In this document: positions 5,266-41,214 of the stretch, in pieces
Numbering within the stretch: position 1 is the first letter of the stretch
Layout: the number at the start of each line of letters is the position of its first letter
Assembly: GCA_032718475.1 (NCBI GenBank)
Contig: JAUCBJ010004224.1
Location: 62,001 to 126,000 of the forward strand
DNA length: 64,000 nucleotides
Direction: 5' to 3'
Source of the DNA: Nemertoderma westbladi
Lineage: Eukaryota; Animalia; Xenacoelomorpha
Translations under genes and position numbers: made by a program
The notes under the pieces: generated by a model
What the model was told of the DNA's origin: nothing
What the model saw: only the letters and a program-made list of their open reading frames with translations
Database searches by the model: none

Positions 5266-5293
5266 GTTGCCTCTGTTTTTATTAAATTGTGAC

Positions 5294-6361
5294 TCATAGT
5301 ACGATTTTTCTGCAGCTTTTAATATTGTATTTATATTTTTTGTAATTTGATCCGTTATATGCTGTTGGAATTTTTAAAAATTTGGAGAAAAGTCTGTTCT
5401 TTTTTTTAATACATTTTAATAAGGCTTGAGTTATCCATGGTTTGTGTGTAATCTTCCTTTTCGGTATAAATTTTTTTGGTAGGTGTTTATTACATATTTT
5501 TTCAAAATATTGGTAAAAGTGTTCGAATTTTGATTCATTTGGAATATCTTGCGATCTGTATGAGCTCATTGGAATCGATTGGAAGTCAAATAAAAAGTCT
5601 GTGGCCTTAAATTTTGAGTAGTCATAGGTTGTTATTTTTTTGGGTTGTTCAAAAAATGCTGAGAACTCCTGAAAAATTGCAAAAGTTGCTAAATGGTCCG
5701 TTGTGCCATACTCAGATAAAAAGACTCCAGAGCTGTTTATGCATGTCGAAATATTTGTAATGATATGATCCAGGGTAGAGTTTGCTCCAAAGACTATACG
5801 TGTAGGTTGTTTTATAAGCTGAGTAAATCCGTAAGAGGATATTGTCTTAAGATATTGGGAACTTTCCTTGGTTATTTTGTTAAGGTTTACGTTAAAATCG
5901 CCAGCAAGTACAATATCTACATTTAGATTAGAGATGGATAACAAAAGTTTATCGAAAATTTCATGGAATGTATTAAAATTAACAGATGGTGGTCTGTAGA
6001 TTATACCTACTAAGAGATTTTTATTGCTATTTGTTTTAATTTGAATCCACTTGTTTTCAATTCCGTCGACTTTTAATTCAGGTTTTTCCAGAAAATTTAT
6101 GTTGTCTTTGATGTAGTAGCCTACGCCCCACCCAGTACCAGTTTTTCTTCCGCTCGGCCGGGCTGAAAGGAAGGGACCGGCATATCCTTCTATTTGTAGT
6201 TTACTTAAGTCTTCATTCTCGCCTACGAGAGTTTCTGAAAAAGTTAGCATATCGAAATCATGTTCTAATGTACTTAAAATATCGGTAGTTGGTGATAGAT
6301 TTCGGTTTAAACTCCTACAGTTGAGGTGGAAAATAGAAAAGTTAGGTTTAGAATTTATCAA
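5294..6361 (-). pseudogene. LINE B APE endonuclease domain
   Basis: HLNCRSL, FSET, IYRPP, GDFN, LDHI, TDH, KPWIT. Confidence 0.9.
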
Positions 6362-6431
6362 CTGAATTTCATCATTGAACCCGTCGTCAGTATAGTATTC
6401 GCTATACCTGGCGGTGTTTAAGATATGTATA

Positions 6432-6959
6432 TCAGCGGTCTATTGAACTAAATTTTGGATTGGTAATGTCGCTGTTAAAATCGGAAATAATTGTCGAGGA
6501 TTCAAATATATCGCCGTCGTCTGAAGAAATAGTTGTAAAAGGGAAAATATCACAGTAACAATGCATACAATAATGACCAGAAAAAGGGAAAATATCATAG
6601 TAACAATGCATACAATAATGACCAGAAAAAGGGAAAATATCATAGTAACAATGCATACAATAATGACCAGAAAAAGGGAAAATATCATAGTAACAATGCA
6701 TACAATAATGACCAGAAAAAGGGAAAATATCATAGTAACAATGCATACAATAATGACCAGAAAAAGATTTGGATCCATATAATTCATTGAGTTCAGCAAT
6801 AGTCAGATGAGAACCGCATGGTAGGTGGAACCAATTTCTACATAAAATACAGTGAATGGGAATATCAGAAGGGACAAACTGTGAGTAGCAAAATGTGCAT
6901 GAGGAACAGGGGGAAGGGGGAGGGGTTTGGGACAGGATTCTTGTAATTGGGATAGACAT
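6432..6959 (-). pseudogene. LINE B ORF2 N-terminal PHD-like finger with expanded Cys/His repeat
   Basis: CTFC...CILCRNWFHLPC...YCMHC, with (FSGHYCMHCYYDIFP)x5. Confidence 0.8.
6537..6765. repeat. 45-bp tandem repeat x5
   Basis: Unit AAAAAGGGAAAATATCATAGTAACAATGCATACAATAATGACCAG, near-identical copies. Confidence 0.95.
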
Positions 6960-11959: not shown

Positions 11960-12148
11960 AACTTCTACCTCCCGAATTGTAAATCCTTTGAATCTGATAC
12001 TTTCTTTTTTAACGGCATTACAAATTGGAACGCTCTGCCTAATGAAATTAAAAACCTAGATAATCAACATTCTCTTAAATCTGCTGTTAAATCTCACCTC
12101 CGTGTGCAATGTAAAAATAGGTACAATAGTCCTACAGTAAGTTATTAG
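11960..12148 (+). pseudogene. LINE A ORF2 C-terminal fragment
   Basis: Manual translation NFYLPNCKSFESDTFFFNGITNWNALPNEIK...VSY*. Confidence 0.75.
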
Positions 12149-12191
12149 TTTATTAATTATTTACTATTTATACTGTAATTATGTTTTATAT

Positions 12192-12378
12192 TAAATTGTT
12201 CTGTACATTACATCTTTATCGTTGAGTCGGACATTGTCACGCTCTCGGTAAAGTTGTACATGTACATAGTGTAATTACGTTTTATAATAAATTGTTCTGT
12301 ACATTACATCTTTATCGTTGAGTCGGACATTGTCACGCTCTCGGTAAAGTTGTACATGTACATAGTGTAATTACGTTT
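12192..12378 (+). repeat. Tandem duplication (96-bp period) in the LINE A 3' UTR
   Basis: TAAATTGTTCTGTACATTAC...GTAATTACGTTT occurs twice. Confidence 0.9.
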
Positions 12379-12587
12379 ATATTGGTTTTAGGTTAGCGTA
12401 GTGTAATATTGTATTTGTAACCAAGTAACATAGAGGACCCCCTTGGAAATAAGCTGCAAAGCTTTAGGGGTAATCCTATATGTTATGTTGGACAAATTGT
12501 CCAACATAGGACAATACCTTTATACCGGTACATTGTTTGGTGTATTTGTTATTGTTTTTACATAATGTATAAATAAATCTATCTATC

Positions 12588-13727
12588 TGTTCGCGCTTTT
12601 AGACCTTTAGCAGTTTAACCTGCCAATTTTAGGTGTCTTCTAGTTTATAAATCGACTTTAGCCTATAAAACTGTTTAGTACACATAAAGTAACATTAGCC
12701 GAAACCAGTCTATGCGCGACCATTCACCCGCTGGATATACCCGGGAGACTGGATTCGGATGCTTTGATCTTATTGCGGTGCAGACCTACCGTATTATTCG
12801 ATTACTCGTTACTATAATATCTCTGACAAATATTATTTACTTTCGGGAAATATTAACAGTTCCTTTAGGACGTGGCGCTCTAAGTATGTAAACAGAGTTA
12901 TGACTTACACTAAACACAACGGGATGGCTAATGATTTTCGTACAAAGCGCATTCTTTAGGAAATGCTTTGTTATCTGTCACACTCCTGCACACTACCGCA
13001 CACTGCTGCACACTGATCTGCCGACCTTCACTAAATTTGATCATATATAAGGAGAATAGCAACTGACACATGTAGAGATTATGAAATAGCATTCAATTCA
13101 CTCCAAAACCACTATAATGTAAGTCGCAGCTGCTACAGGTAACTGGTCCCTCTTACCTTCAGTATATCAAGAAGATTGGGGTTTTCTGATTATTTATCGA
13201 TAATCTCCAAATATAACAACATATCCATCAACATATATAATAATTAATAACCGACAGTAAACGGTACAGGCAGGTTGTTAAGTATGTTAACAGTGTTATG
13301 TATGAGTATGGTTTGATTTGATAACAGTTATACGTTCCTATAATCAAGCCGTCTAATGTTTGGCTAAAGTCTGAAACTCACATAATTCCAAAGCCGATGT
13401 TCTGGGCTCAGGAAAAGGTAAAACAAAGACCGTCATGCATTGCGCGATTTCCCGTAGGCTTCTGTAAAAGATAAAATGAAAATCGCCCTGATTGGTCGAG
13501 CAAGCCGAACATAGAAAGCTCCACGAGTACAGTAAATCAGCTGGTAGATGTCGTCATTTGAGTTCCAGGTTTAGAGTATATAGCGTATTGCGGAGAAAAT
13601 TGCTCGTTATGTCCGCTAAAGCACACATGCAGACATAACGGGTAAAAATGGCTTTTTATGTCCACCAAACACCTACACAGTACATTGCAGAGAAAAAGGG
13701 CCAGTTATATCCGCAAAAGCTTTTACA
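12588..13727 (-). repeat. 3' LTR of BEL copy 1 (1140 bp)
   Basis: Minus strand reads TGTAAAAGC...GCGCGAACA, preceded by the PPT-like GGGAGCGG; homologous to but clearly diverged from the copy 2 LTRs. Confidence 0.9.
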
Positions 13728-16700
13728 CCGCTCCCAGAAAATGGGATTTGAGTCTATAAAATATATACAATCACAGTTTCTAAAACATAAAAATACTCTA
13801 AACTACTAGTCTTTCTTACGAGGACGGCGTTTACGCAGTTTTTTGAGGCTAGCGAGAGTCTTTTTCTCTTTGGGGCGAGCCACTTTACTAGGAGGGCTAT
13901 AACTCCTGGGTGAGGGGTGCAATACAATTGCATCGGAAGGTTTAGGGTTACGGTCGGTGTATCCACCGGTCGAAGTACCTGGTTGATCGATATCAACCTC
14001 AGCGGAGCGAGGTCGAACGACCTTTAGAGCGCGTTTCAGGACAGCAGCTCTTACTGGTCCCTGACGGGTCGTCTGAACGAGAGCGGTAGGTGGACCATGG
14101 GTAGTGAGAAACTTCCTTGGTTTAATGGTTCTTTCCAACTCGCGTTCTCGGGCTCGATATTCGTAGGGCCGTCTATGCACTTCCTGTAACTCTGGATGCG
14201 AGTTGATGAACAAATCGCCATATTCCGGATCTTGACGAATGAAGTTGATCAAGTTATAGGAATTAAGATCGTTAGGATTAATGTTCCTGAGATATTTACG
14301 AACAAATTTGGTTGAAATACACTCGCCAACACGCTTCATTAGTTCGTAACTCGGCGTGCGTTATTTTTGTTCAACAGACGTGAATAGATAAGGATGGAAT
14401 GCATAAACTCCTTCGTAGGCGCGTCCAGGGTAATAGCGATGGCGTGACTCACAATGTAAATCCGCGTTCGCTTCCCAAGCTCGGATGTAGCATAGGGTAA
14501 TCATTTCATCTACGCTTTCCAGATCGCGGTTAAAAGGGCAATTAAAACTGATATGTCCTTTAAGTTGACAATGATGGCATTGAGTCATAAATTGGGGGCA
14601 GACTGCGAAAATATGCAAGTTATTGAGTCTGCAATACGCACAATAGATCTCCATCGCCGGTTGTTCATGGAAATAGGAGCAGGGTACGTCTGAGTCCATG
14701 GGTGTGAGATGGTCTCTCGATGCGCATAATCGGCAACGTTTTCGAGAAACATAGTTGGCATGCCGATAATCGTATGCGGTGAGACACTGTGGACCTTGAT
14801 ACCATTCCAAGACGTAGTCGTTGTCGCTGCTCCGGAGCGCGGTAGGCTGAATCGCCTTGGATTCTAAGCATATTGGTTCGTCTTCCAATTGCATAGCTGA
14901 GGTAGGTGTGACTGTTTCCTCAAGCGAACCCACTGTCTGAACTTCCACGATAGAATAGCCCGTGGGGATTCGAGGTCTTTGTATAACAGAGGAATGTAAG
15001 TTCTGTATACAAACATCCTTGAAAATGGCGAATCCAGCGCTGTCTAACTTCTCAGTAGCTGAGTCTCTTAGGCTGAGTTTGGTCAGAGCGCGGTCCTTGA
15101 ACTGACTATCAACGTTACGGAACGGAGTCAGAAAGCGCCTGAAACATTCGAAGCGGATGAATTTATTGTGTTCATCTAGCTTGGCGAGTTTGGTTCCAAG
15201 TATTAAGGGATGGGCATGTATAGTACGACTGCACACATCGGCTAGCCAACCGGCAAGTGCGGCGTTTTCAAAGATCGTGTATATAGCTAAGGAGGGACGA
15301 AGGGGAACACTCATGAAGCTATACACGACACCAGGTGCGGTCAATGGTCCATCGAAGTATAATCGAGAATAATGATCTCCATATACTTGTTGATAGTTGA
15401 TAGGATTTCCGACCTTGAAATTCCATCCGTATTCTTGAAAGGCAAGATGTCCGTGGGAGGTTCGTTGTACTTTAGTAATGCCGCTGGGTGTATTGGCATA
15501 CATAGTTCGGAAGAAACCTTGGCCTTTTGCCCAGGGAGCAATCAGCTGAGTATCTACGAAAGGATATGGAATATTCTCCATGTTCTGAAAGTCGTTTTGG
15601 AGATCTCCATAAACAGCTGAGCCGATTTTAATGATTCTTTCGTTAAACAACATCTCGAGCACGGGCTGGGGTAACATCGATCCATCGATACCCATGGCCG
15701 GTTTGCGCTCGGTGTCAGTGACGTAACACTGCGCGAGTTCGAATTGTCCATGTCGGAGTTTCTTTTGTATCTCAGTGAGAGTCTCAAAAGAATAATCGAT
15801 CACGTCGGAACACGCTCGAGTAAACACGTGGGTAGAACCAGCTAGTCTTCGTATGTGTATCATGCGCTTAGTTCCCAGTTCTCCGACCGGAACGCTACCT
15901 TCGTTATCGTAAGTGACAACTCCATACATTTCGATAACATTAAGAGTTTTGTTCCACTCTTTGGTGGCGTTCTCTAGGGTCATCCCCACCGGATGCCACA
16001 AGGTGGCGCATTCGCTAGCGCTAGGGAGATCCCTATACTTCAGATACTGTGTAGTATACGTCTTCACAACTCCATATCTTTGTATTCTCTCTTCTTCGAA
16101 TAATACGTTGAGATTCCAATGGACTAATCGAGTTTTAATAAATCCATCGAGATTATACAGAGGTGTTGTATCCTTCTCTATTCTAGAAACATTGTATGGT
16201 TTTCTGAATGAGTTTACTTTCACTAACTGATCCAGGTGTTTCTGCAATTGTTCGAGTTAGACAAGGTCAAGAGGATTTATTAGCGGTAGAAACCTTAGAT
16301 TAGGCGTCGGGTCTTCAGGTTTTACCATATAATATTGAGTTAGATTGACGTAATAAGGGTGGTCTTTGATCCCATAAAACGAGTTCGGTAAAGGTCTAGC
16401 GCGTATGTTGACCTCATGTATCATACGACGGACAAGATCCGCTCGATTGTCCGGAGGTTCAACGAGTATACCGTCGACACAAGCGGCCTCGATTGGCGGA
16501 CGCTGTAACATAGGAGTGTCAGCGATAAGATCTCGGGATCTTAGGTTGATATCAACCGGTTGGGGTTGTACCGTCGCAAAGAGTTTGTCTCCGAAATGGG
16601 GAACCATCGAGGGATGAATGATGGTTTTGGAATAGAGATCAGTCATAAGGATTTGAGCTTCGGGTTGGGCTAAAGCTGCTTCTTCTCTCTCATCCATTTC

Positions 16701-17855
16701 GATGTGTTTCTCCTCGAGCTGATTTTCCTCCGCTTGTCGTTGTAAGCATTCATCTAAAAACTCTTGTAGAGAATAGGTTTGTCCAAGTTCGATGTCTTCC
16801 TCGAGGTTTTGGATTTCTCGATCGAACTGTGGCAAGGCCAACTCTTTCACCGATTGGACTTGTTGCTGCAATTTAAGTTTCTCTAAACAATCGTACGTTC
16901 ATTTTCCAATCTTCTGCCGAATAGCGTCTAACGCGTTTCTTATAACGCTCTCCTCGACTTCGGTGACGGGTTGCATCGGGGTTAAACCGGGACGATTGTA
17001 AGGGTTGAACGGCGATATTAAATGTCCGCGTCCCAATCCGGCTAGGTAGGATGGGCGAATATCTAGAGAGCCCACTACCGGAGTGCCACCAATTAATTGT
17101 TCGGATAACACTAAATCTTTGAACAGTGAGTATAGCTCGGGAGGATCCGTGATACTATTAGGATCAAGAGTTTGAGGTCTCACTGGGGAATGAGGAGGTC
17201 TGACCAAGTAATCCGGAACTCTGATCGTGGGTTTATTTAATGATCGTTTGAGGCGAGCGATCGTAGGTGATACATCGAACAAATTTCGCTCGAAACTCCC
17301 GTAAGTATAGCGAGTAAAACTGTGTTTAGCGCAACGTCTCCGCGGATGTTTATGTCTTTCCGTTTGTTGGTTGGGTCTAGGGCATTCATCACAATAATAC
17401 CAAAGACGCACGTCCTGTAGAGGAAACGTGGGTGATCGTTCTCCAGTTTTACAATATTCCTCCATCTGTTCGAAGCTATCCGGGACAACAGGTAGCGGTC
17501 GATCGGCGGTAAGATACATCATAGTGAAATAGAGCTGTTTGAGTTCTACCATGGGGTCGTGATGTATACCTTGAGGATATCGAGTTTCTAGATTCTGTTG
17601 ACTGGCAATATTGAGATATGTTTCTCTCAAGAATTCCAGATAATCGTTGAAGTCGCTGCGTTTATCTGGCTCTTCAACATCTTCTCTTTCGAGTCGGTTT
17701 CAAATAGAGTTCTCGTGTTCGATTCTCAGTTTATCATTCCGACTCTGCTGGGTATGATATTTGAATAGAACCATTTCTCTTTCGGTGTCTACATCGTCCG
17801 TATCGTGTAAATCGATAGGATGGCCAGTAGTTAAGAAGTCCATATACGTACCATT

Positions 17856-20800
17856 GGATCAAACGACACAGAGACTGGGATTGTGATTAGCGATGGTTTG
17901 AAACAAAATAAGGAAAATATAAACGTTAAGGTTAAAGTCTCATCACATATCACTGGAACTACGCAAACGAATGACACAATTCGTAAAAACTCATATACCA
18001 TTAATGAAACACTTGTGCGCATGTGCACATTTAATAGTAAAGGCTTGAGTTCAAGTATCGATTACTTAGACTGTTTATGTACAAACATGGACATAATTTC
18101 AATCCAAGAACACTGGCTGGACATGGCAGAATTAAAATACCTAGTATTCACAAGATATGGAGACTTCCACTGTGAATCGCTCGTCAGTAATCTCATGGAC
18201 AACCCAAATAGGGTTCGTGGGGCTGGAGGAGTACTCTTAATGATACGGAAATCACTCATTAAGTCAAAAACTAAACAGTGTTCGAATGATGACATTGTGG
18301 GTTCTCTGATTGAAATGCATAACTCTAACCTGCAATTTATCTTCTTATCTGGATATGCGCCAGATACATCCAAGCCAAAGGAGCAGTATGATGACTTTCT
18401 TGGCAGAATCAAACAAATTTTGGAATGTAATAATCAAGCTATACCTTACATTCTCTTAGATGCAAATGCTGACCTTGGGAACACATGTGGTCAACGTTGG
18501 ACAAAAAAACACCCGAATCGCAATGGCAGGTTGCTATCGGAGTTCTTGGCTGCTAACAATTTAGTGGCAGTAGATACATATGGTAAATTTTCAGGACCAT
18601 CTGTTACTTTCAGGGGGCCTCAGGGCGATTCATATATAGACCATATACTCACAACCAACCCTGGTGACCAACTAATAGTGAGCGGTGAGGTAATAAACCC
18701 ACATGTCCATGCTCTCTCTGATCACAGTCCAGTAGTAGCTGAGATAGCAATTGTAAATGAACATAATACAAATAACAAGGAGAATACACAGGAATTTACC
18801 AAAAGATTACCACGAGTAGCCTGGAGTAAGGCGACTACAGCTCAACTCAACAGTTATAAGGAGTATGTAGAGAATAAGCTGGATAATCTCCACTCAAGCA
18901 GCATGAACTCTTTCGATTGGACATCTGAGGAATTGAATAGATACACCGAGGAGATGCAGAGAGCTATTACAGAGGGAGCCAACCTCTTTATACCTGTCAT
19001 TAAATTTCGAAAAAAGACGACCAATATTCGTATAAGGAACAAATTAATATCTAGTCATGCAAATACTACTAAGGAGCTGTATAAAATTTGGAAGCAAAAT
19101 GGTAAAATTAAAAGGGACTCTTTTAGCATAGCATTGAAAGAGTCAAAGAAATCACTAAGGCGCCTTAGAAACTGGCTTGCGAAACAATCAGTAAGATCCA
19201 AAACTGGCGGCATAGTACATAACAGGAATAATCCTCATGAGTTCTGGAAACACTTCTCAACTAAAGAAGGAACAGCTCCCATCAGCATGGCTAAATCACT
19301 GAGAGATAATTTAATACATGTTATGAACTCAGCTGAAACTGATGCTGAAAGTGAGTTAGACAAAGTAGTCATCGAACTGAAACTACTATCAGAAGGTAGA
19401 AGTCCTCCAACAATATCAGAGGGTACTGTTAAACATGCTATACTAGCATTAGCTAGGGGCAAATCTCCAGATTTCTTTAATCTTTCAGCAGAGCACATTC
19501 TTCATCTTGATGAAAACTATGCTGCTGTACACTTATGCAACATCTTCAATGCCTCAATCCGATTGCAGACAGTCGCTGAAGTCTATGGAAGGACACTGAT
19601 AACATACATATATAAAAGTGGAAACCGCGGAACTACACGACCAAACAGCTATCGACCAATTGCCACTGTATCTGTATTTGGTAAACTGTTCGAAGCTATC
19701 ACCCTCAAACAATTCATTCTTCCATACATATCTACAAACTCATGCCAATATGGGTACAAAAAAGGAGTTGGATCAGATCTTGTAGTAGCGTTGATACAGG
19801 AAATTATTGAGTCACATCGTCAGAGAAATCAGTCCCTTTACATATTTCTCTTACAGTGTATTATTTAAAACCCTCTCGGAGCATATTTGCCCTTTTATCT
19901 GTTTGACCCTAATTAATTATTACAGAGTTGGATTACTGTTTCTAAAGTTCGGAGATATGATATTGACCAATGGAATTCGAACAAGAATAGGTGTAAAACA
20001 AGGATCATTGTTGTCACCAACGCTATTTAATGTCTATTTAAAGGGAGCCTTAGATTCAGTTGAGAAAACAGGCCTTGGAGTATCTTTTCACAACATCTGG
20101 TCAGGTCTAGTTTGCTATGCGGATGATATAGTTTTATTGTGCAATAATAAAGAGGAGATTACTAGTATGCTAGCATTACTATCATATGAAATGGATAAAT
20201 TGAACCTAAATATGGAACCCACAAAATCAAAATGGATGAGCATTATACCCAAAAACACATACCGACCCCTATTCATCAACTCAGCAAATTGCCTATTCCC
20301 TGAATCCCAAACAATCAAATTCCTTGGCCACACCTTATATGGAAATAATAACTGTAACACTAATTACTCAGTCATAATTCAAACTCTTGCGTCTATGTCA
20401 CAAGCGTTTCACAAAAATGGCTGGACCATTCGATGGTACACCATAAACACAGTGTTCAATCTTTGGTCCAGGATGGCCATACCAGCAATTCTGTACAAAA
20501 TAAAATTCATAATAGGGAATCTAAATCAAGATGAAATGGAATCTATGAATGCATATTATAGAAAGATACTCAGGGGACTTCTTTATGTTGGATCGTACGT
20601 CAATAATGCTACATTAAGGAAACTCTCAGGATGTAGAGATCTATCACTTGAGGTATACCGTGACGTGACTAATTGCATGCTGCGTTTGGTAGTTAGTCCA
20701 CATCTCAAACTTCAGTTGCTGCTACGACTTGGTCTTATCTGGAACTATCAGTCAAAGCGGCGCTATCCTGGACTGGGAAGTACATATATGCGAGCAACTC

Positions 20801-21164
20801 GAGAATTCCCGATACCCTCACTATTTTCAATGTGTGTAAACCGGTACCACAAACGGACACTGAAATCTCACATAAACCACGGACATCCAACAGGAAAAGA
20901 TATTGTCAATGCGGACTTTATATATAACTGTTATAACTCTGGCCAATGCGGATTTGCGGCAAAACATAACCGCATACTGCAGTATTTCTTAAAATAATTA
21001 TCTTTTGCACAGATTTTTCCTCCATTTACAATTACTAACCTATGAACCTTATGACATTTTTAATTTTGTATAGTTTGTTCGGTTTTTATTCAGTATTAAT
21101 ATATACTTTTTAATTCAATATAAATACCGGCTTGACTGGTGTACCTTGTGAAATGAAATGAAAT
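17856..21164 (+). mobile_element. LINE D (RTEX-like), 5'-truncated, inserted in BEL ORF3
   Basis: APE + RT ORFs and a (TGAAA)n tail; host frame resumes exactly with a 2-bp target deletion and no TSD; clade call is tentative. Confidence 0.85.
17883..20997 (+). pseudogene. LINE D ORF2 (APE + RT), frameshifted with a deletion near 19850
   Basis: CTFNSKGL, IQEHWL, DANAD, YIDHI, SDHSP, SYRPI, QYGYK, GVKQGSLLSP, YADD, KFLG; the DxxKAFD motif is missing at the break. Confidence 0.9.
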
Positions 21165-22992
21165 GATGCGTGTAGCGAGCGGTGAATTTTCTATAGTCCA
21201 ATTCACGCGTGAGTTGCTCCTGGGACATTGGCGGTTCGATATAACGACCATCGTCCTCCGTAGTAGTTGGACCAGCGTCGCCGCGTATTAAGCTACCAAC
21301 AAACGCTTGTAACGGCAGAGTATATCGTTCTCTGATACCAAGATCATCTTCTATCAACTCAGTCATAACTGCTATATGAGTTTATCAATGTTATAATTAG
21401 TTATAATTAGGCTAGCGGGCGTCGCTGCCTACCCCTCATGGCCCCCGGACAGCGCAAGGTCCTCAGCGCCGATGTACCGTTGTCGCTGTGTTTTTCACCA
21501 ACGTAGTAGCTACACAACGACAACGATAACCAGCGCGAGTCACTCCACTGTCCGTCCCAAGGGCTTAGATTTACTACTTTCACAACTGCGACTAGCTACT
21601 GTAAACACACTTTAGTAGTATCATTCACCTATAAACGCACAAATTCCACACAACTGTCACAAATTGTATACATTCGGGCCATTTGTCCGTTAGTCAAGTG
21701 CCTTCCAGAAAGCCACGTTATTATTATGTATCCTTGGATACTAGCAGTGTGCTATGTATTCCTTATGCTATTCAATGGGGCAAGCTTTCTATTGTTCTTT
21801 TAACTCGCTTCTAATTCTAGAGTGGTTGTTGCTATGGTGACATTATGGAAAGCTAGCAGTAGAATTAGGTTAATTCTCATGCATACAGATCTGGGATGCT
21901 ATTTAATAGTAATTCTTTAATTGTCAATATCCCTCTTTATATATGATTTTACGAATTTTATCGGCTATTGACTATATATTGGAGATTCTCGCACACTAAT
22001 ACACTTAATAGGGTGAATCTCCGCTCCCATGATCTATTAATTAATGGAATTTTGGGAATGTTATAAATTGTATAAAATGACAATTTATCAAATTCATTAG
22101 AGGATATGAATTTAAATTATTCCCGTAAATTTTATTCTTTAATATTAAAATAGACATAATTTTTATTCCAGAACATGTCTGGGAACTAGGATCCTTAATT
22201 CTAGGAATTTTGTCCTTTTAAGAGTATCGGTAAGTACTACGATATCTTAATCGACTAGAATTTTAAAGGGTCTAAATTTTAACAGATTTTGATTTATAGA
22301 TTTGTATAAATATTAACTATGTAATATTTAAGATGGGCACCAATTTATTCCAGAACTTGTCTGGAGACGTTAACCACTGATTCTAAAATTTTGTCTTTCA
22401 AGTATATCGGTGGGTGCCACGATATCTTAATCGACTAGAATTACAGCTGGTCAAAGGGTTTAACAGATTTATTTTGCGTTTTTACTCTACTGTTAAAGGG
22501 ACATCACGCTACTATATGTATTATTTTAATATAAGGTATGAGAGCAATATCGCACGAAGCAATGTCAGTGAGAAGAGGCAAGTCGTTTCCAAGGTCTACC
22601 CAGAGCTTGGTTTAGCCGAGACGCGAGGATCTGAACTTTGCATTCCTAATACTCTACTTACCAATAATACTTGAATATAGTAGGAGCTTTATTGTACTTT
22701 AATAAGTACGGACATTTCATCTTACTGTAGTCACGCATTTATAATATGATACAGACAGTAAGGAAAGAGAAAAAGAATTGTTTCTCGCCGTCGCACTAAA
22801 TATATAATATAAGTGATTTAGTAATAAGACTAATATATATGGCACTAATCTACTGAATAATCGCTAAAATAACATTCTACTAGATAAAATTAAAGAAAAC
22901 GATTATAATAAAAGTACATAATAATACATACATAAATATAAAAATAATAAAATATATAAAATAATATAGTCACACACCCACTCCAGACGGCG

Positions 22993-23701
22993 TTACGTTG
23001 GGGAGTCCCTAGATGTTTGTTGGATTAGGGAGGTGGTCGTGGGAAGAGTATCTTGCCTTCCATAGTTTCCGGAGAGTTCTCTGTCTCTCTCCCGTAAATT
23101 TAAACGACCAACTGGGCGATTGAGTTGCTGTGTTTCGAACACAATTCCAGGTTTCTTAAAGTTACGTCGCATGATGACGAGTTCTACCGATCGCACTAAA
23201 CCATCACCTGAGATATGAGTCTCGATGATACGACCTGTCTGCCACCGCTCACGTGGAAGATCTGATTCCACAATAAGGACCATGTCTCCAGCGCTGATGT
23301 TTTCTTGCTGCGCAAACCACTTAGTTCGAAGTTGTAGCGTAGGCAGATAATATTTTTCGAAATGGTCAGCGAAACGACGGGATAACAACTGCATAAGTTG
23401 CCAAGTTTGCCGGCAGTATTCGTCTCCGTCCGTGATTTCCGATCGTGGGAGCATGGCTACAGGTTTCTTCAGTAGGAAGTGCGCGGGTGTTAGCGCTTCC
23501 AGGGAATCGGGACTCGATGAGACTGGCATAAGCGGTCTCTCGTTGAGATAGGCGGCGATTTCTTCCATTAATGTCCGCAAAAGTTCGTCGGTGAGATACG
23601 CGCGGCACAGCACTATAAAGTGAAATGCGGTCTTCACGCTCCTGATTAATCTCTCCCAACTTCCTCCCCACCAAGGGGTGTCGGCGGGGTTGAAGGTCCA
23701 G
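22993..23701 (-). pseudogene. BEL copy 1 integrase C-terminal part (after a 1-bp frameshift)
   Basis: PWWGGSWERL, LNERPL, LTPAHFL, YLPTLQLRTKW, GDMVLI, DGLVRSV. Confidence 0.9.
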
Positions 23702-26700
23702 CTAGACGCCTGTTACCCTTAGCTGATCGTCCACCTGTCTTTGGTTCCAATCTTTAACGTAAGCCTTGATTTCATTGTTGGCACCAATGAAGTTCGTTCC
23801 CTTATCAGATCTCATCGTGTTACTAGTTCCAAAGCGAGCGATTTGTCGATGTAAGCTCAGTATGAAGCTGTTGGTAGATAGATCATTCACCATATCGAGA
23901 TGGATAGCTCTACAAGTCATACAGACAAAGATGACACACCATCTCTTGACTATAGTCCTAGCACTATATACTTCAATAGGGCCAAATAAATCCACGCCGG
24001 TATTTGTAAAGGGTGGTTCATAGAAGCTTACTCGTTCCCTAGGTAATTCTGCCTCTCGCTGTGTTAAAGGCCTACTGAATGCTTTCCTACAAGGTATGCA
24101 GTTCCTAAGAACTTGGTTCAGAGCTCTACGGGGTTTATGAAAATAATAGCGAGTTCGAATTTCGCTAAGAACTCGTTCTCTACCATCATGGTAAAGCTTA
24201 CTGTGAACATCTACAATCATCTTGATTTGTATTTCAAGATTTCTAATGAGTATGGGAAACTTAGTGTCAAAGGATAATGGAGCATTAGTTAGTCTTCCTC
24301 CAACGCGTATTAACCCATCTATCATTGTGCTAGAGAAACGATCCCTTAAGCACATCTGTGGATTTCTCAACAACAGGAAATACTTATCAGAATCCTCATA
24401 GCATTGCAGGAGCCTCAGTATCTGTTTACTGGTTTCTTCATGCTCCTGGTAACTGATCTTCTCCTTCAGAAATCTGTCTGATATCTGGTATTTGGGAAGA
24501 TCTTTAACAACATGGACCTGCGCAGATGTCAGTGGAGCGGTATCACTAGCGATATTCTTTCTGCAATAGTGATAATGAAAACATCGCTTCAAATATGCAA
24601 CGGCCTTACAGAGCCGATTCCAGGAGCTATAGTGATGTATCGCTCTCTGCAGGAGGGGTGAGAGTCCCTGCGAGACGTCTGGTGTTCCAGATTTCCAATC
24701 TCTCTCTCTGATTTCCACAACAGACATATTTGTGGCGGGGGACTTTGGATCCAAAGCGTCGTCTCTGGAAATGTGTAGTACAGACAGATCTATCACGGGT
24801 TTAAATAACTTTGATTTACTCGCCCGGGTTTTAGGTTTAACTTTCTCCGCTCCCTTGGCTTGTCTTATCTCAGCCGTGGTAGGATGAGGAGGCCATTCAT
24901 TCTCTTCTTTACTTAGGAAGTCGGGTCCACCTAACCAGTCTGGAGTGTCTACCAGTTCTTGAGGAGTTGCTCCTCTGGAGGCGATGTCAGCTGGATTAAT
25001 CGTCCCAGGGCAATGTCTCCATTGATCTATCTTCGTGCGACTAAGTATAATGGCTACTCTGTTGGTAACAAAGACGCTGAACTGACAGACTTCATTGGTT
25101 ATATACTCCAACACGAGTAAAGCATCGGTCCAATAGACAGTTTTCTCCAGTGGATAGTCGATCTGTTCTGTTACATTCCGGCCGATGGCTGTAGCGTATA
25201 GAGCCGCTTTTAACTCCGCTCGAGGAACTTTCAGCTTGTTGTTTATCAAGGCCTTAGAAGTAACCAAGGCGACCTTAATTCCCTCTTGAGTTTCAACCCT
25301 CAAGTAGGCTACTATACCTATTCCCATGTCACTGGCGTCTCCAAACACATGGAGTTGATAGGAATATGTGGGGAGAACGTGACCAAAATATGAACGGGAA
25401 ATAATAAAGTTCTCGATGGAAGGTAGAGAATCTTCCCATTTCATCCACTTCTTTAGCAGTTCTCCCTTAAGTGGATCGTCCAATGAGTGGTTTTCAAGCC
25501 ACATTTGTTGTACTAAACTCCGAGCAACCAATATAACGGGGCTAATAAATCCCAATGGATCGAAATAAGTGCTCAGGATACTTAGACAAATCCGTTTGGT
25601 GCGAACTGGATTATCTCTCTGTTTTAGTTGGAAAAACAGGAAATCTCTCTCCGTGTCCCATTTCAAACCAAGCGTCTTAGTTTCTGGAAGATCGTCCTTG
25701 ATAAGGTCTAGATCTTTAGCTCCTCGGTCTTCTACCGGGATCGATTCCAGAAATTCCCGGGAGTTACTTGTGAATTTAGTTAATCTAAATCCACCTCTTT
25801 TCAAGCACTCTACCGTTCCCTTGGCGACATCAATGGCTTCTTCCACTGATGGGAGGGACTTTAAATTGTCGTCCATGTATATTTCCCTTTTGATGTTGTC
25901 AATAACCGCTTTAGAGAAGGCGTCCCGATTGTCTTCAGCAGTGGTACGCACTACTGAGCAGGCGTTTGAGGGGCTCGAGGTGATCCCAAAAGCCTGTATG
26001 GTCATCCAGTACTCCACTGGTTTCTGGTCGAGGTCTCCTTCAGGCCACCACAGAAATCGTAGGCTGTCGCGATCCCTATCCAGCGCCTTAACTTGTAAGA
26101 ACATGCCTTCTATATCCGAAGCAAAAGCGATCGAATATTGTCGTAATCTTAAGAGTATTCCCAACAAGGATTGGAGTAAGTTGGGTCCCGGCAACAACTC
26201 GGAGTTAAGGGATTGGCCCATGTAGAGGGCGGAGCCGTCAAATACTACCCGGACTTCGTTGGGTTTACCAGGTTTGGGAACGTAATGGTGTGTTAAATAG
26301 TACGTTCTCTCGGTTATGGGTGTTTCTTCTGGTACTCGCTCCGCATATCCCTTGTCAATGAATTTCTTCAGCTGGGTCCTGTACATCTCCTTAGCTGAAG
26401 CATTTGCCGTAAGGCGTCGATGTAGTTGCGCGATTCTCTTCTCCGCCAAAGGTCGGTTATTTATAAAATTGGGTTCTCTCCGTCGGAAAGGCAGACCAAT
26501 CTCATACCTACCTTGATCTTTAAGAAAACGTGTAGTCGTTTCCTGTATCTGCTTGGCTCTTTCCTCTTCTACCGATAGGGCCTTATCGTAGGAATTGGGC
26601 TCTACAGCCTCTTGAGTAAAGAATCGTACGGCGTGTTCATCGCGAGTCTTCGCGTTGGTACGATCTATCACTTCATTCAATTCGTCGTTGTAATCGACTT

Positions 26701-29083
26701 GTCCCGCTGGATGGATGAGGTGACACAGGTTCACTTGGTTTTGCCAAGTTTCATTTTCCGTAAGGAGGTCGATGGTATTCTCCTCGTCAAATAGTTGATG
26801 AATATCGTCATTATCTGAGGAGTATGGCGTTCCCTCAGGTGTGTCGTCTCCCTTACTGATTTCCTCTTCCCATTCACTCACCTGGTGGACTTGATCTTTA
26901 GGTAGCCTTTCCATGAGTGTCCTACGGGAAGGACCAGTAAAGTACCAACCTACTCTAGTTCTTCCCGCATAAGTTTGCAGTGGTTGCGGTTGAGTAGGCC
27001 GTTTCTCTAATGTCTCAAGCGCCTCATGCGCATTTTGGCCGATGAGTATTTGTACCCCTGGGTAGTCGGTGTTGAATCTAGGTATCTCATGCTGCTGGGT
27101 GAAATTGTCTTCATCCCAGTTATAAGGTTCCACTTGGCTGGTAGCGAAGTTCTTTATCGCTACCATTTTCACTGACCTTATACTGTGTTCTCCTAGTTTA
27201 TCCTGGGGGGTGGACAACGCGCCTACATAGTAGTCTGTAGCTACTGTAGATTTCCAAACCTGCATAATTCCTGAAAGGTTCAACTTAGTTCGGACCTTAG
27301 GTTGTCCAGCAAAGATGTCTTCGGCTAGTTTTTTGTCGATGAATGTTCCTGTGCTGCCGGAGTCAAGGAGGGCGTTCACTATATAGCTCCTTTTTAACCC
27401 GTGGACTCTCAACTGTACTACGGGAAATTCTCGGATTCCTACGTTGGAAGTTGGCGCTTTCCAAGATGGTTGTCGGTCAGGAATAGTTAAGGGGAGCTCA
27501 CTATCAGTTTCAGTCTCATACGTAAGTGCTCGATACACTGCGGTGTTTATTAGATAACAGGATTCGTTTTCGTCGGAGAATTCATTTGTGTAGAATCCTT
27601 CCATCTCCGAACTGTGATCAGTGTCGTTCACATCACTGAATTGGGCATGTAGTTCGGACTCACTTACCTGACTCGGGTTGTTTCTTTCGAATTCGGTGTG
27701 CAACAAGATATTATGTTTCGCGCCGCACTTCGCACACCTTGCGTCGGAGTAACAGGTTCGCCGTTGGTATCCTTGTCTGAGACAATTATAACACAATCGC
27801 TTATCCCACATGACTTCTCGTCTATCTTTTAGGGATTTCTTTAAGAATTCATCACACACACTTAAACGGTGGGGCCCGTCGCACAACGCGCATTTTGGTT
27901 TGATGTTACTTACTTTACCTTGGGTAGTGTTGTGCACACTTGTTCTCTCCTCGGGCTTTCTTCCCTGAATTCTCTTAGGAGACGTGGGAGGAGTTTTTGT
28001 TGTCTGTTCTCTCCTGTCACTGGTTCGAGACTTAAATTTGCTTACATCCTTTGGTGTTTTGTTGACATAATAAGATCTTTCGGTGTCTTTTCCGTTGCTC
28101 TCCTCTTGAGAGGTTTGGCTTTCGCCGTCGTCTGTATAACACACTGGTGTTACCTTTCTCCTAGAAACGGGTTTTTCACTTACCTTATTTTCCGGTGTCT
28201 TCTCTCGGGACTGCTTTAGGAGCTGTAATCTTACCTCTCCATTTAAGAATGACATGAGATCAGCCATGGTAGGGTCTCTTTGTTGCTGGTCCATCATATA
28301 GAGCACTTTCTTGTCCCAGCGATTACCTACTCCACCCTTTGGCAAAGTAGATGCTACGGCTCCAATAACCATGGAACTCTGATATTCATGAGACTTACCT
28401 AACCAATCTAATTGTCTACAGATCTCCTGAATCTCATCGGAAAACTCTATAATCCCGCTGCTAAGGAACTTTTGGGGCGCTACCAATTTTGCATACAAAT
28501 ACCTAGCTATGTTTGTCCTATTACCATACCTGATGTTTAGTGTATCCCAAACTTGTCTTAATCCATCTGGATGTCCAATAAACTTTAACGCCATTAACTT
28601 GGGAGGTCCTTCCAAACACTCGATGAGGAATCTAAGTTTCTCTCCGTTAGATAGTACAGAGTTCTGTATGTTATCTTTGTAATATTCATTAAAAGGTAAC
28701 CATTTCATCTCCTCTCCATTGAACTTGACAATCTCTCCCACTTTTACCGCTTGACGGGCTTCGGTTCTAGCCATTTGACGCGTAAAACTTTCTTGGGCCA
28801 TTGTGTTATTTAATATCGAGTTATCGGTATATAAATTTCTCGGATTATGATCAGGTCTATATGGAATATCATTGTCAACAGGTTTATAATTACCCTTAAT
28901 AGGGTTTACTATAGGAGTTTCTACTTCACTAGCAGTATAGATGCGTGTAGGCTCCACACCTTGCGCATGAAATACTTCAGACCTAACGGGTTGACACATT
29001 GTTACAGGGGGTGGTGGTATACCCCTTTGTGTATTTACTAATTTATCGCGTTCTAACGCGATACTCTGCTGCACTTCTTGCAA
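23702..29083 (-). CDS. BEL copy 1 Gag-Pol polyprotein (Gag core, Zn knuckles, aspartic protease, RT, RNase H, integrase)
   Basis: CALC..H..C / CYNC / CAKCGAKH knuckles; ALLDSGS; RVVFDGS, GPNL, DIEGMF, YMDD; FDPLG, FGDAS, PRAEL, NPAD; GVDLFGP, SDKGTNF. Confidence 0.95.
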   Translation of the reverse strand: MQEVQQSIALERDKLVNTQRGIPPPPVTMCQPVRSEVFHAQGVEPTRIYTASEVETPIVNPIKGNYKPVDNDIPYRPDHNPRNLYTDNSILNNTMAQESFTRQMARTEARQAVKVGEIVKFNGEEMKWLPFNEYYKDNIQNSVLSNGEKLRFLIECLEGPPKLMALKFIGHPDGLRQVWDTLNIRYGNRTNIARYLYAKLVAPQKFLSSGIIEFSDEIQEICRQLDWLGKSHEYQSSMVIGAVASTLPKGGVGNRWDKKVLYMMDQQQRDPTMADLMSFLNGEVRLQLLKQSREKTPENKVSEKPVSRRKVTPVCYTDDGESQTSQEESNGKDTERSYYVNKTPKDVSKFKSRTSDRREQTTKTPPTSPKRIQGRKPEERTSVHNTTQGKVSNIKPKCALCDGPHRLSVCDEFLKKSLKDRREVMWDKRLCYNCLRQGYQRRTCYSDARCAKCGAKHNILLHTEFERNNPSQVSESELHAQFSDVNDTDHSSEMEGFYTNEFSDENESCYLINTAVYRALTYETETDSELPLTIPDRQPSWKAPTSNVGIREFPVVQLRVHGLKRSYIVNALLDSGSTGTFIDKKLAEDIFAGQPKVRTKLNLSGIMQVWKSTVATDYYVGALSTPQDKLGEHSIRSVKMVAIKNFATSQVEPYNWDEDNFTQQHEIPRFNTDYPGVQILIGQNAHEALETLEKRPTQPQPLQTYAGRTRVGWYFTGPSRRTLMERLPKDQVHQVSEWEEEISKGDDTPEGTPYSSDNDDIHQLFDEENTIDLLTENETWQNQVNLCHLIHPAGQVDYNDELNEVIDRTNAKTRDEHAVRFFTQEAVEPNSYDKALSVEEERAKQIQETTTRFLKDQGRYEIGLPFRRREPNFINNRPLAEKRIAQLHRRLTANASAKEMYRTQLKKFIDKGYAERVPEETPITERTYYLTHHYVPKPGKPNEVRVVFDGSALYMGQSLNSELLPGPNLLQSLLGILLRLRQYSIAFASDIEGMFLQVKALDRDRDSLRFLWWPEGDLDQKPVEYWMTIQAFGITSSPSNACSVVRTTAEDNRDAFSKAVIDNIKREIYMDDNLKSLPSVEEAIDVAKGTVECLKRGGFRLTKFTSNSREFLESIPVEDRGAKDLDLIKDDLPETKTLGLKWDTERDFLFFQLKQRDNPVRTKRICLSILSTYFDPLGFISPVILVARSLVQQMWLENHSLDDPLKGELLKKWMKWEDSLPSIENFIISRSYFGHVLPTYSYQLHVFGDASDMGIGIVAYLRVETQEGIKVALVTSKALINNKLKVPRAELKAALYATAIGRNVTEQIDYPLEKTVYWTDALLVLEYITNEVCQFSVFVTNRVAIILSRTKIDQWRHCPGTINPADIASRGATPQELVDTPDWLGGPDFLSKEENEWPPHPTTAEIRQAKGAEKVKPKTRASKSKLFKPVIDLSVLHISRDDALDPKSPATNMSVVEIRERDWKSGTPDVSQGLSPLLQRAIHHYSSWNRLCKAVAYLKRCFHYHYCRKNIASDTAPLTSAQVHVVKDLPKYQISDRFLKEKISYQEHEETSKQILRLLQCYEDSDKYFLLLRNPQMCLRDRFSSTMIDGLIRVGGRLTNAPLSFDTKFPILIRNLEIQIKMIVDVHSKLYHDGRERVLSEIRTRYYFHKPRRALNQVLRNCIPCRKAFSRPLTQREAELPRERVSFYEPPFTNTGVDLFGPIEVYSARTIVKRWCVIFVCMTCRAIHLDMVNDLSTNSFILSLHRQIARFGTSNTMRSDKGTNFIGANNEIKAYVKDWNQRQVDDQLRVTGV

Positions 29084-29100
29084 CTCTAACCTACTTTCCC

Positions 29101-31002
29101 TTACTGTTCCCTTGAACTGTTAAACAGTCTCCTGCATCTGCCCGAGCAGGTGATCCATCCCCCGCCGTCTCTCATCCACCCACTCGACCGCCAAAGCAAG
29201 AGCCGCCAACATAGTAGCGGGTAGACGAGGGACGACCGGCGATAAATCTTTAATGTCTCGCTCGGCGTCCAGGACATGAATTGTCTCAGGGACTGTTCTA
29301 CTGGGCACAGGTAGTTTAGTACTATGCAAAGGGAATTTAGAGGTAGGTTCTGGGAGTACGGTGTCTCTATCACCGAAGGGGTGGCTTCGAGAACAGGCCT
29401 AATTATTTCAGGCTCATCTACTATAGTAGGGAGTCTTTCTACTCTAATAATTTGGTCTGTGGGTTCTGTACTACCTAAGTCTGTGCTAGCTAGTTGCCTT
29501 CTAACAGCTGGGGGCAAATTAGGCAATTTCTGACAGTGGGGCATTCTTCTATGCCTGCTTGAACGAGATCTATTTCCTCCGCCTTCGGGATCTATTGTAT
29601 CGCCTTCATCAGATGATGTAAACCCTTGTCTCTTGGGAGTAGATCGACTTTCCATCTGCCAATGACTACCTGTTCTCTGTTTATCTATGTAGTCTTGCTT
29701 CTCTTGAAGATTTTCCAACTCTAGTTGGGTGGTCTCTTCTGACGCCCTCCGTTCTGCTTCTGCCACTGCTAGCTTTCCTTCTGCTTCTGCAGCTGCCACT
29801 GCCGCTTTTCTTTCCACTTTGGCCGCTTTTCTTTCCGCTTCTGCCGCTGCCAATGCCACTTTTCTTTCCACTTCTGCCTCTGCCGCTGCCGCTGCTGCTG
29901 TCTTTCTGTCTTCTATACGTTTTTTCTTCACTTGTTCTTCTTGAATTCTAGCGATGCGGCTGCTTTCATCAAATTTAGCTTGGTTCTCAGCTAACATTTC
30001 CGCATCTAATGCGTCCAACACAAACTTGGCTCCTTCACTATTAGGGCGAAGTCCAGCTAGCTGTCTCCTCAACTCTTGGTCACCTATAAATCGTTGATAG
30101 TCTGACAGATAGATGTCAATAGCGTCCTTCTTCTGAGGTTTCTCCAATGTCGCTTCACTTTCCACTTGAGAAAAAGTAGCGTCTGTTGATTCTCTGTGGG
30201 TTGAGCGCTCAGCCAGCTGAATTTTCCACTGGGCTGTTCCTTGAACTTTGAGACCCACCCGCTGGAACCAAGTCTTTACGGCAACTTGCAACGACGTGTC
30301 TTGGCTTCTTTTCGAAGCTTCCTCAAAGGCCGATAGGATTAGTCTGATTCGTAGAATTCGTTCTCGAACTTGATAAAGCAGCTCTCCCTGCTCTTGAGGT
30401 CCGTGAGGTTGTTGAAACAGTTGTTCCTCTAATCGCTCCAAAGAGCTGAAGAATCCCTGTACATATCCTGCTGCCGACCTCTTCCACACAGCTGGATCTC
30501 TAGTGTCCTTGACCACTCCCATCCTGTACAAGTCCTCCCTGGCAGCTTCCGATAAGTTAAACGGGAGTCCGGGTCCGGGGAAGTTTCATTGCATCTCGAC
30601 AATAGACTTCAGTTCCTCCAATGTGTATCCCGCATAACTGTCCTTGGTCGATCGCTTGCTTCTCGCCCAATCGATTTGATGTTCTTCCACCGCAATCAAT
30701 ACCCTAGTGAGTACGGCTTTGGGAAGAATGAGAAGTGGATCCAAATAAACCGCCTCTGCCATCTCTATTCCGATCTCGGGTGTCAACTCCACAGTATCTG
30801 AACTACTGGAGCTATCGGTCCGCTGAGAAATAAGTTCTCGGTTCGGATGTTGCTGCTGTTTAACAGCTGCCTCTTGATCCCGCTTGACTTGAGCCCGCAT
30901 GCCTATAATAGACCTACGGTGCTTGACTAGCCTAGGGTCTGATACTACTACTGGGGGGATGACCTTTCTTACAGTAGGAGGGGATTTGAACTTTGGTCTC
31001 AA
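29101..31002 (-). pseudogene. BEL copy 1 Gag N-terminal region, frameshifted (ORFs 30586-31002, 29101-30531, 29120-29329)
   Basis: DAIDIYLSDYQRF...EGAKFVLDA and the Ala/Glu-rich coiled coil are homologous to the start of the copy 2 ORF. Confidence 0.8.
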
Positions 31003-31030
31003 ACGTTCCGCACTACTATCTAAATCACAG

Positions 31031-33231
31031 CAAATGGCTAGAACCGAAGCCCGTCAAGCGGTAAAGGTGGGAGAGATTGTCAAGTTCAATGGAGATGAGA
31101 TGAAATGGTTACCTTTTAATGAATATTATAAAGATAACATACAGAACTCTGTGCTATTTAATGGAGAGAAACTTAGATTCCTCATCGAGTGCTTGGAAGG
31201 ATCTCCCAAGTTAATGGCGTTAAAGTTTATTGGACATCCAGATGGATTAAGACAAGTTTGGAATACATTAAATATCAGGTATGGTAATAGGAATAACATA
31301 GCGCATAACATAGCAAAATTGGTAGTGCCCCGAAAGCTCATTAGCAGCGGGATTATAGAGTTTTCCGATGAGATTCAGGAGATCTGTAGACAATTAGATT
31401 GGCTAGGTAAGTCTCATGAATATCAGAGTTCTATGGTTATTGGAGCCGTAGCATCTACTTTACCAAAGGGTGGAGTAGGTACACGCTGGGACAAGAAAGT
31501 GTTATATATGATGGAACAACAACGAAGAGACCCTACCATGGCTGATCTCATGTCATTCTTAGATGGAGAGGTAAAATTACAGCTCCTAAAGCAGTCCAGA
31601 GAGAAGACACCGGAAAATAAGGTAAGTGAGAAACCCGTTTCTAGGAGAAAGGTAACACCAGTGTGTTATACAGACGACGGCAAAAGCCAGGCCTCTCAAG
31701 AGGAGGACAGCGGGAAAGACACTGAAAGATCTTACTATGTCAACAAAGCGCCTAAAGACGTAAGTAAATTCAAGTCTCGAACCAGTGCCGGCTGAGAACA
31801 GGTAAGAAAAACTCCTCCTACGTCTCCTAAGAGAATTCATGGAAGAAAGCCCGATGAAAGAACGAGTGTGCACAACGTTACCCAAGGTAAGGTAAGTAAC
31901 ATCAAACCAAAATGTGTGCTGTGCGACGGGCCCCACCGTTTAAGTGTGTGTGATGAATTCCTAAAGAAATCCCTAATAGATAGACGTGAAGTCATGTGGA
32001 ATAAGCGGTTGTGTTATAATTGCCTCAGACAAGGACACCAACGGCGAACCTGTTACTCCGATGCGAGGTGTGCTAAGTGCGGCGCGAAACATCATATCTT
32101 GTTGCACACTGAATTCGAAAGAAACTGCCCGAGTCAGGTAAGTGAGTCCGAACTACATGTCCAATTCAGTGATGTGAACGACACTGACCAAAGTTCTGAG
32201 ATGGAAGGATTCTATACGGATGAATTCTCCGACGAAAACGAATCCTGTTACCTAATAAATACCGCAGTGTATCGAGCACTTACGTATGAGAAAGAAACCG
32301 ATAGTGAGCTCCCCCCAACTACTCCTGACCGACAACCATCTTGGAAAGCACCAACTTCCAACATAGGAATCCGAGAATTTCCCGTAGTGCAGTTGAGAGT
32401 CCATGGGTCAGAAAAGAGCTATATAGTGAACGCCCTCCTTGACTCCGGCAGCACAGGAACATTCATCGACAAAGAACTAGCCGAAGACATCTTTGCTGGA
32501 CAACCCAAGTTCCGAACTAAGTTGAACATTTCAGGAATTATGCAGGTTTGGAAATCTACAGTAACTACAGATTACTATGTAGGCGCGTTGTCCACCCCCC
32601 AGGATGAACTAGGAGAACACAGTATAAGGTCAGTAAAAATGGTGGCGATAAAGAACTTCGCTACCAGCCAAGTGGAACCTTATAACTGGGATGAGGACGA
32701 TTTCACCCAGCAGTATAAGATACCTAGATTCAACACATACTATCCTGGAGTGCAAATACTCATCGGCCAAAATGCGCATGAGGCGCTTGAGACATTGGAG
32801 AAACGGCCTGCTCAACCGCAACCACTACAAACCTATGCGGGAAGAACTAGAGTAGGTTGGTACTTTACTGGCCCTTCCTGTAGAATTCTCATGGAAAGGC
32901 TACCCAAAGAACGAGTCTACCAGGTGAGTGAATGGGAAGAGGAGATCAGTGAGGGAGACGACCCACCTGAGGGAACACCATACTCCTCAGATTATGACGA
33001 TATCCACCAACTATTCGACGAGGAGAATACCATCGACCTCCTTACGGAAAATGAAACTTAGCAAAACCAAGTGAACCTATGTCACCTCATTCATGCAGCG
33101 GGACAAGTTGATTACAACGACGAACTGAATGAAGTAATAGATCGCTACAACGCGAAGACTCGCAATGAACACGCCGTACGATTCTTTACTCAAGAGGCTG
33201 TAGAGCCCAATTCCTACGATAAGGCCCTATC
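31031..33231 (+). pseudogene. BEL copy 3 gag-protease segment
   Basis: QMARTEARQAVK..., three Zn knuckles, ALLDSGS; stops at ~31795 and ~33061. Confidence 0.9.
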
Positions 33232-37673: not shown

Positions 37674-37678
37674 CGGGC

Positions 37679-41130: not shown

Positions 41131-41214
41131 ATTACTAGGCTAGCAGTTAATACTGAGTTATTAGACTTGCTCAGACTGTAATACAGCAGTAGACATTCAA
41201 CTGTACACATAAGC

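Follow-up and report, generated by a model that had tools for sequence, protein, structure and literature searches.

Juno and Vesta, bdelloid rotifer retrotransposons with long terminal repeats (LTRs), are Ty3/gypsy-like; the element considered here, from the xenacoelomorph Nemertoderma westbladi, belongs to BEL/Pao. Three copies of it lie in a 64,000-nucleotide stretch (the window) of contig JAUCBJ010004224.1, positions 62,001 to 126,000 of the forward strand in assembly GCA_032718475.1. Between pol and the 3′ LTR it carries a third open reading frame (ORF3) of about 1,417 codons, split in copy 1 by a long interspersed nuclear element (LINE) and four stop codons. ORF3 is a genuine accessory gene that has been under selection, and it contains a divergent DEDDy-like domain.

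In Juno and Vesta, and in the Athena/Terminon elements, ORF3 encodes a DEDDy exonuclease, its catalytic activity undemonstrated (PMC5408684); PMC5718144, PMC6431247 and PMC6338049 are further sources on these rotifer third genes. As described in PMC5408684, the ORF3s of Juno, Vesta and Athena resemble the window gene in several ways: each follows pol as a third gene other than env, has a DEDDy domain like that of RNase D with an altered acidic motif, and lacks a transmembrane segment. As in the rotifer elements, the putative DEDDy frame lies between pol and the 3′ LTR. The motif itself differs: DEED in the rotifers, by the same account (PMC5408684), and D-E-D-E, or D-E-D without a fourth acid, in the window. 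Unlike the rotifer ORF3s as presented there, the window domain is part of a frame some 1,400 codons long that also encodes a zinc-knuckle array; the two are likened by description, not by sequence.

For BEL/Pao, the profile of Belpaoviridae issued by the virus-taxonomy committee ICTV lists gag, pol and env only, lengths of 4.2-10 kb (a descriptive range, not a strict criterion), and a primer site of 18 nt for tRNA-Arg or tRNA-Gly (PMC8742986). The window element agrees with the profile in its Gag, its order of protease, reverse transcriptase (RT), RNase H and integrase with Pao-type Pfam domains, its TG...CA LTRs of about 1.2 kb, and its polypurine tract; the LTR pair, target duplication and polypurine tract are all seen in copy 2. 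It departs from the profile in its length (at least 15.2 kb), in a third gene that is not env, and in a primer position that in copy 2 is complementary to the element's own LTR. The initial annotation of this DNA had stated that DEDDy frames are known from some bdelloid rotifer elements and are not a standard BEL component.

The literature searched, which did not extend to older papers on nematode Cer elements, listed no BEL/Pao element with an exonuclease. Extra domains may have been described for Cer elements, so an earlier mention there is possible. The word "exonuclease" has 0 occurrences in PMC3118150, PMC9094657 and PMC554778, and passages of PMC2628886 and PMC3601003 contributed nothing decisive to the comparison.

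A third gene kept by selection

Copy 1 and all its features given below lie on the minus strand. Copy 2 (37680-49489, LTRs 37680-38927 and 48245-49489) and copy 3 (50832-56455, comprising the 3′ half of pol, the spacer and the start of ORF3, truncated at both ends) lie on the plus strand.

In copy 1, ORF3 consists of a 5′ piece at 21165-21366 (67 full codons from the ATG at 21366) and a main part at 13806-17855, 1349 codons in a single frame. The initial annotation had seen four minus-strand frames in one register with single stops between them, and these are indeed present (16899-17699, 16257-16898, 14361-16256 and 13806-14360): the main frame contains 4 stops in 1349 codons, versus 62-101 in the five other frames.

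Two of these stops had been read as sense codons in sister copies. That at 17700-17702 is a non-stop codon in copies 2 and 3, and that at 16899-16901 in copy 2. For the other two, comparison was made with contigs of four sequencing runs from three studies, binned along the element (30 bins). At 16257-16259, in each of the 4 runs, another letter makes up 99.9-100% of the contig depth. No sister copy covers the stop at 14361-14363, which is absent among the 40 contig differences listed, of 1022. Because this stop is without a sister check, and because the likeness to a related protein (P0001, below) ends just before it, the last 184 codons may have a separate frame end and the product may fall short of 1417 residues. 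Of the 68+1349 codons proposed, these last 184 are uncertain. Among the 12 contig indels listed, of 20, 1 lies inside ORF3.

Removal of the LINE had been said to join the start to the main part. Copies 2 and 3 do read through the empty site, and the joined frame does end shortly before the LTR (79 bp); the flanks of the LINE as they stand in copy 1 are out of frame. The LINE itself (17856-21164, plus strand) encodes an endonuclease and RT, ends in a short tail of tandem repeats, and is not flanked by a target duplication; it is called private to this locus because every one of the 4 runs has contigs that span the empty site.

ORF3 belongs to the BEL/Pao element. The conclusion follows from three observations. 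As the initial annotation had noted, the same start follows pol in all three copies, at a spacing of 1.62-1.71 kb (ATG at 21366, 46880 and 56085 in copies 1, 2 and 3). In copy 2, the start and the end of ORF3 both lie inside an LTR pair flanked by a 5-bp target duplication. Finally, the parts of ORF3 shared between copies are under purifying selection. Over the first 120 codons, the ratio of nonsynonymous to synonymous change (dN/dS) against copy 3 is 0.11-0.14, and that of pol is 0.13. As transitions and CpG decay can mimic a low dN/dS, the null was matched for base and CpG context. Against copy 3, 15 of 24 ORF3 differences are synonymous (7.9 expected, p 0.002); against copy 2, 84 of 218 (64 expected, p 0.0014); and the segment 16692-17438 against copy 2 gives p 0.004.

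ORF3 is not env, because it contains no transmembrane or hydrophobic segment (best 19-residue hydropathy mean 1.19). A duplicate of gag was also considered and ruled out (best E 0.55).

A divergent DEDDy-like domain

The segment 15203-16010 of ORF3 is a likely DEDDy 3′-5′ exonuclease domain with two insertions. Going by sequence, a fold of the RNase D/EXD type is very likely there, and the domain is very probably followed by CCHC knuckles. All support for the fold is sub-threshold and rests mostly on the ExoII block.

The motifs quoted in the initial annotation were found where it had placed them, its residue numbers being 3 too low; counted from 16256, they are D117, E119, D218, Y326 and E330. 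ExoI (D117, E119) is at 15897-15920 and ExoII (D218) at 15597-15617, with DTQ following at 15546-15560. These three acidic residues align to invariant positions in 15 of 15 alignments, and neither the window protein nor P0001 nor any of 56 bacterial domains departs from them. ORF3 aligns with cellular RNase D and EXD2/WRN (PF01612) at the D-x-E of ExoI, at the K-x7-D block of ExoII and at the DTQ that follows. Identity to cellular DEDDy exonucleases is about 11-19%, with no ExoIII aspartate and no subfamily assignment. Both insertions lengthen the domain relative to its cellular counterparts: 101 residues separate ExoI from ExoII (cellular median 59), and 94-108 separate ExoII from ExoIII (range 65-79).

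Profile and embedding searches point the same way. NCBIfam yields matches to two RNase D models and to nothing else (best E 0.0017, far below cut-off). In the ESM Atlas, 25 of the 30 neighbours of the window domain are PF01612 clusters, at a score of 0.91 (about 164 shared features) that shuffled proteins reach 4-10 times per 100. A profile of 72 bacterial DEDDy domains ranked P0001 first (E 0.0004) and ORF3 second (E 0.02) of 585 segments. With hhalign, ORF3 matched the DEDDy profile at probability 90 and score 45.3, while none of 20 shuffles scored above 21.6; in global mode, hhalign produced no meaningful alignment.

P0001 is a 648-aa protein, unnamed, of an ENA assembly. It was recovered at E 2e-6 among 1.84 billion proteins as a single record. 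It keeps the D, E, D, Y and E residues and the knuckles of ORF3 at about 28% identity, and in the ESM Atlas it too has 25 of 30 neighbours in PF01612 clusters (0.94, 174 features). Like ORF3, it combines a divergent nuclease that has Y-x3-E with a linker, a knuckle array and, beyond that array, a short motif; unlike ORF3, it is much shorter. Three word-index protein searches found no relatives. Scans of loci on viral and metagenome contigs gave no usable relative, tblastn against phages and plasmids was empty, and PHROG returned weak matches only. In the PDB, a sequence search gave chance matches only for the window frame, and knuckle matches for A1 and P0001.

ExoIII is the difficult motif. 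The preferred candidate, Y326-x3-E330 (15267-15287), is supported by the pairwise match to P0001, which has a canonical-looking PL-x3-Q-x2-Y block ending in Y-x3-E and shares the glutamate with the window protein. The alternative, Y312-x3-S (Y312 at 15321-15323), contains no acidic residue. Both have equal PL-x6-Y spacing, and neither is the Y-x3-D of a standard ExoIII. Judged by these sequence comparisons, Y326-x3-E330 is probably the ExoIII motif rather than Y312. The DEDDy layout claimed initially stands for ExoI and ExoII, which are firm, and for the fold at sub-threshold support; its ExoIII aspartate is absent and the register is ambiguous, so that the ORF3 product may or may not be catalytically active.

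Several results weigh against an active DEDDy nuclease maintained by selection. No curated cut-off was reached, and Pfam PF01612, the profile that the initial annotation had proposed as a check, did not match the window protein. The hhalign match spans only 53 columns around ExoII. Structure prediction, also proposed for testing the fold and the clustering of the acidic residues, gave no clean pass: the unbiased AlphaFold model, from two sequences, has a predicted local distance difference test score (pLDDT) of 31. A second, fitted model was built from bacterial DEDDy rows with ExoIII misaligned, and its agreement with known structures is circular and not counted as support; its core blocks reach pLDDT 79-93 and Foldseek matches it to RNase D, NrnC, EXD2 and WRN, while model residues 225-249, the stretch with the two ExoIII candidates, remain below 50. 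In an ungapped motif scan the ExoI site falls outside the top three, and a motif scan of the window protein scores the acid-free Y312 register above Y326; ExoIII was aligned automatically in 0 of 15 alignments. The dN/dS test that had been suggested found selection on the ORF3 parts shared between copies, a comparison that the nuclease domain, with no sister copy in the window, falls outside. The C-terminal 51 codons alone are not significant (p 0.22). Finally, derivatives without the nuclease domain are common, among the contigs and in copy 2.

The zinc-knuckle array (14538-14735) comprises one canonical CCHC knuckle (14538-14579), one near-canonical (14598-14642) and one degenerate. It matches zf-CCHC_3 at E 0.0007, below cut-off, with weak matches to retroviral nucleocapsid and to Air2, the cellular partner of Rrp6, whose knuckles are weakly similar. 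The N-terminal region (16260-17855) was placed in no family by Pfam or PHROG; it has proline-rich and acidic stretches and a Cys/His cluster at about 17330-17393, and the first ~580 residues of ORF3 gave no Pfam or PHROG match of note. The basic C-terminal tail (13809-13880) is kept in copy 2 and may resemble a nuclear localisation signal.

Predicted hairpins and a primer-site position complementary to the LTR

Pol and ORF3 are separated by an AT-rich spacer of 1.6 kb (21367-22992, GC about 34%), conserved like pol: divergence between copies 1 and 3 is 5.1% in the spacer and 5.8% in pol. It contains a predicted 49-bp RNA hairpin at 21441-21564, 75-198 nt upstream of the ORF3 start; of 24 windows spanning the spacer and that start, none has a z below its -6.4. 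All 3 copies retain the hairpin: changes fall on one side of a pair in 12 cases and on both sides in 3, and 2 pairs are broken. Its covariation, which comes from three sequences and is equalled in 30 of 500 shuffles, is suggestive only. Possibly it is a translation or packaging signal. A predicted 9-bp hairpin (21408-21431) precedes an AT-rich stretch and the ATG; it is invariant in the three copies, hence without covariation signal.

A duplication of about 130 nt (22162-22289 and 22344-22470) also lies in the spacer, in copies 2 and 3 as well, and the window over it has z -4.8. No splice-acceptor tract was found in the spacer by simple pattern, and an Rfam scan of 12000-24000 gave no match. 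The sequence after pol was considered as an LTR and rejected, because the copy 2 LTR pair encloses both pol and ORF3.

In copy 2, the primer-site position (38928-38939, plus strand) does not start with TGG and may have been altered by a deletion. Its 12 nt are an exact complement of the element's own LTR at 38145-38156 (also at 48712-48723); 7 of 5000 random positions match equally well. The complement site differs in copy 1, where the primer site is missing. This complementarity resembles self-priming of the Tf1 type. The complement site in the LTR lies about 10 nt past a TATA-like word, a poor fit to a simple transcript start.

The copies and their surroundings

The gag-pol region of copy 1 (22993-31053) is broken by 1 stop and 2 frame changes. 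It matches DUF1759, Peptidase_A17 (E 6e-34), Integrase_H2C2 and DUF5641 in Pfam, and the motifs DSG, YMDD, DAS and HHCC are present. RT searches of the scanned viral and metagenome contigs gave no usable related loci. The 3′ LTR (12588-13727) has TG...CA ends and 75% identity to the copy 2 LTR, and a polypurine tract (13728-13735) abuts it, as one does in copy 2. The 5′ LTR is absent, an inverted fragment (31031-33231) cutting the element there, and the length of at least 15.2 kb is without it.

The LTRs of copy 2 differ at 45 of 1237 aligned sites. Internal deletions have removed the nuclease and knuckle part of its ORF3 (13963-16694 in copy 1 coordinates), and in copy 3 ORF3 ends at the equivalent of position 17691, so that the nuclease part is present in copy 1 only of the three. 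The gag frame of copy 1 (29101-31053) starts some 300 codons farther upstream than that of copy 2; copy 2 may have lost 5′ sequence or may encode a Gag that is shorter. The 2.2-kb leader of copy 2 (38940-41180) has internal repeats at 39321-39740 and 40705-41041.

Beyond the window, all 30 bins are covered by contigs from the 4 runs, with identity mostly 90-99%. The family is called abundant because thousands of contigs cover every bin, a measure that is not copy number; run X1 alone has 24,034 matching contigs. Amplified derivatives without the nuclease (joints 14155-16699 and 14885-17690) may keep the frame, by letter count; the deletion in copy 2 breaks it. A stable fold within ORF3 at 16501-16650 (z -4.2, lowest of 34 windows) lies near the breakpoints of several derivatives. 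The rest of the window is largely LINE pieces (111-2691, 3525-6439, 33695-37710 and 59663-63234), in one of which a PHD finger precedes the endonuclease, and a tandem repeat with a 45-bp unit occupies 6492-6811.

Possible roles of ORF3

Position inside the LTRs, a single long frame, selection and the motifs are observed, and from them we infer a fold, an activity, an expression route and a substrate. ORF3 is a third, non-envelope gene kept by selection, and it would encode an RNase D/EXD-type exonuclease with zinc knuckles, in which E330 would substitute for the ExoIII aspartate. Its message might be a separate one, or one that starts internally, by way of the conserved spacer and hairpin. The knuckles would tether the enzyme to single-stranded RNA, the basic tail would direct it to the nucleus, and the enzyme would trim unpaired 3′ ends back to the paired region. 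Copies without the domain could be served by intact ones. We tentatively prefer, at slightly short of an even chance, an ORF3 product that is an element-encoded 3′-5′ exonuclease and trims the RNA of the element in trans.

The missing ExoIII aspartate, absent in either register and with no acid at all in the alternative one, would suit a protein whose DEDDy fold binds RNA ends without cutting them, a scaffold or decoy like EXD1 and Maelstrom. Those are inactive DEDD derivatives that retain RNA binding, as reported in PMC5408684. We consider such a pseudo-nuclease rather unlikely. The ExoI and ExoII acids are invariant from the window protein through P0001 to the bacterial domains, the PL-x3-Q-x2-Y block of P0001 ends in the same glutamate as the window protein, and the rotifer ORF3s, reported as DEED (PMC5408684), likewise replace D by E. 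An active enzyme might instead be aimed at the host, degrading or mis-trimming precursors of PIWI-interacting RNAs (piRNAs) or small interfering RNAs, or antisense transcripts, and so aiding expansion of the family. A point against it is that the 3′ methyl group of mature piRNAs makes them resistant to trimming. The large number of family contigs in run X1 (again not copy number) would fit, the long hairpin could be a silencing trigger, and cellular DEDDy relatives such as mut-7 act in silencing (PMC5408684). Yet no particular closeness of ORF3 to Mut-7, EXD or Rrp6 emerged, and in rotifers no clear relation was seen between DEDDy ORF3 and copy number (PMC5408684); we regard counter-defence as unlikely, a shade more so than a pseudo-nuclease.

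Were the nuclease part a mere passenger, a separate insertion without a role for the element, its presence in only one of the three window copies and the amplification of deleted forms would be expected. That explanation is very improbable. The initial annotation had named a nested insertion with its own termini as what would overturn its view, and the frame is continuous across both ends with no terminal repeat above 5 nt. The breakpoints of the deletion derivatives also differ, at least 4 of them spanning the nuclease domain; contigs cover the domain much as they do its flanks, and far more heavily than the LINE; and the flanking ORF3 parts are under selection.

The trimming exonuclease can be taken one step further, into a quite improbable but specific proposal: a giant (>15 kb) BEL/Pao lineage that primes itself with its own RNA, in which an internal message led by the hairpin yields a D-E-D-E exonuclease, tethered by its knuckles, that trims the self-primer back to the 12-nt duplex.

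Significance

The conserved, predicted 49-bp hairpin before ORF3 and the complementarity of the copy 2 primer-site position to its own LTR are additions to the initial annotation. The nuclease domain is unbroken in copy 1 and therefore assayable as it stands. It is a near-orphan, with one relative among 1.84 billion cluster representatives and a candidate unusual fourth catalytic residue.

With ORF3, nuclease third genes would extend to a further LTR superfamily. This suggests repeated, independent recruitment of 3′-end trimming enzymes by retroelements. If self-primer trimming is true, it would tie the third gene of this family to tRNA-free priming.

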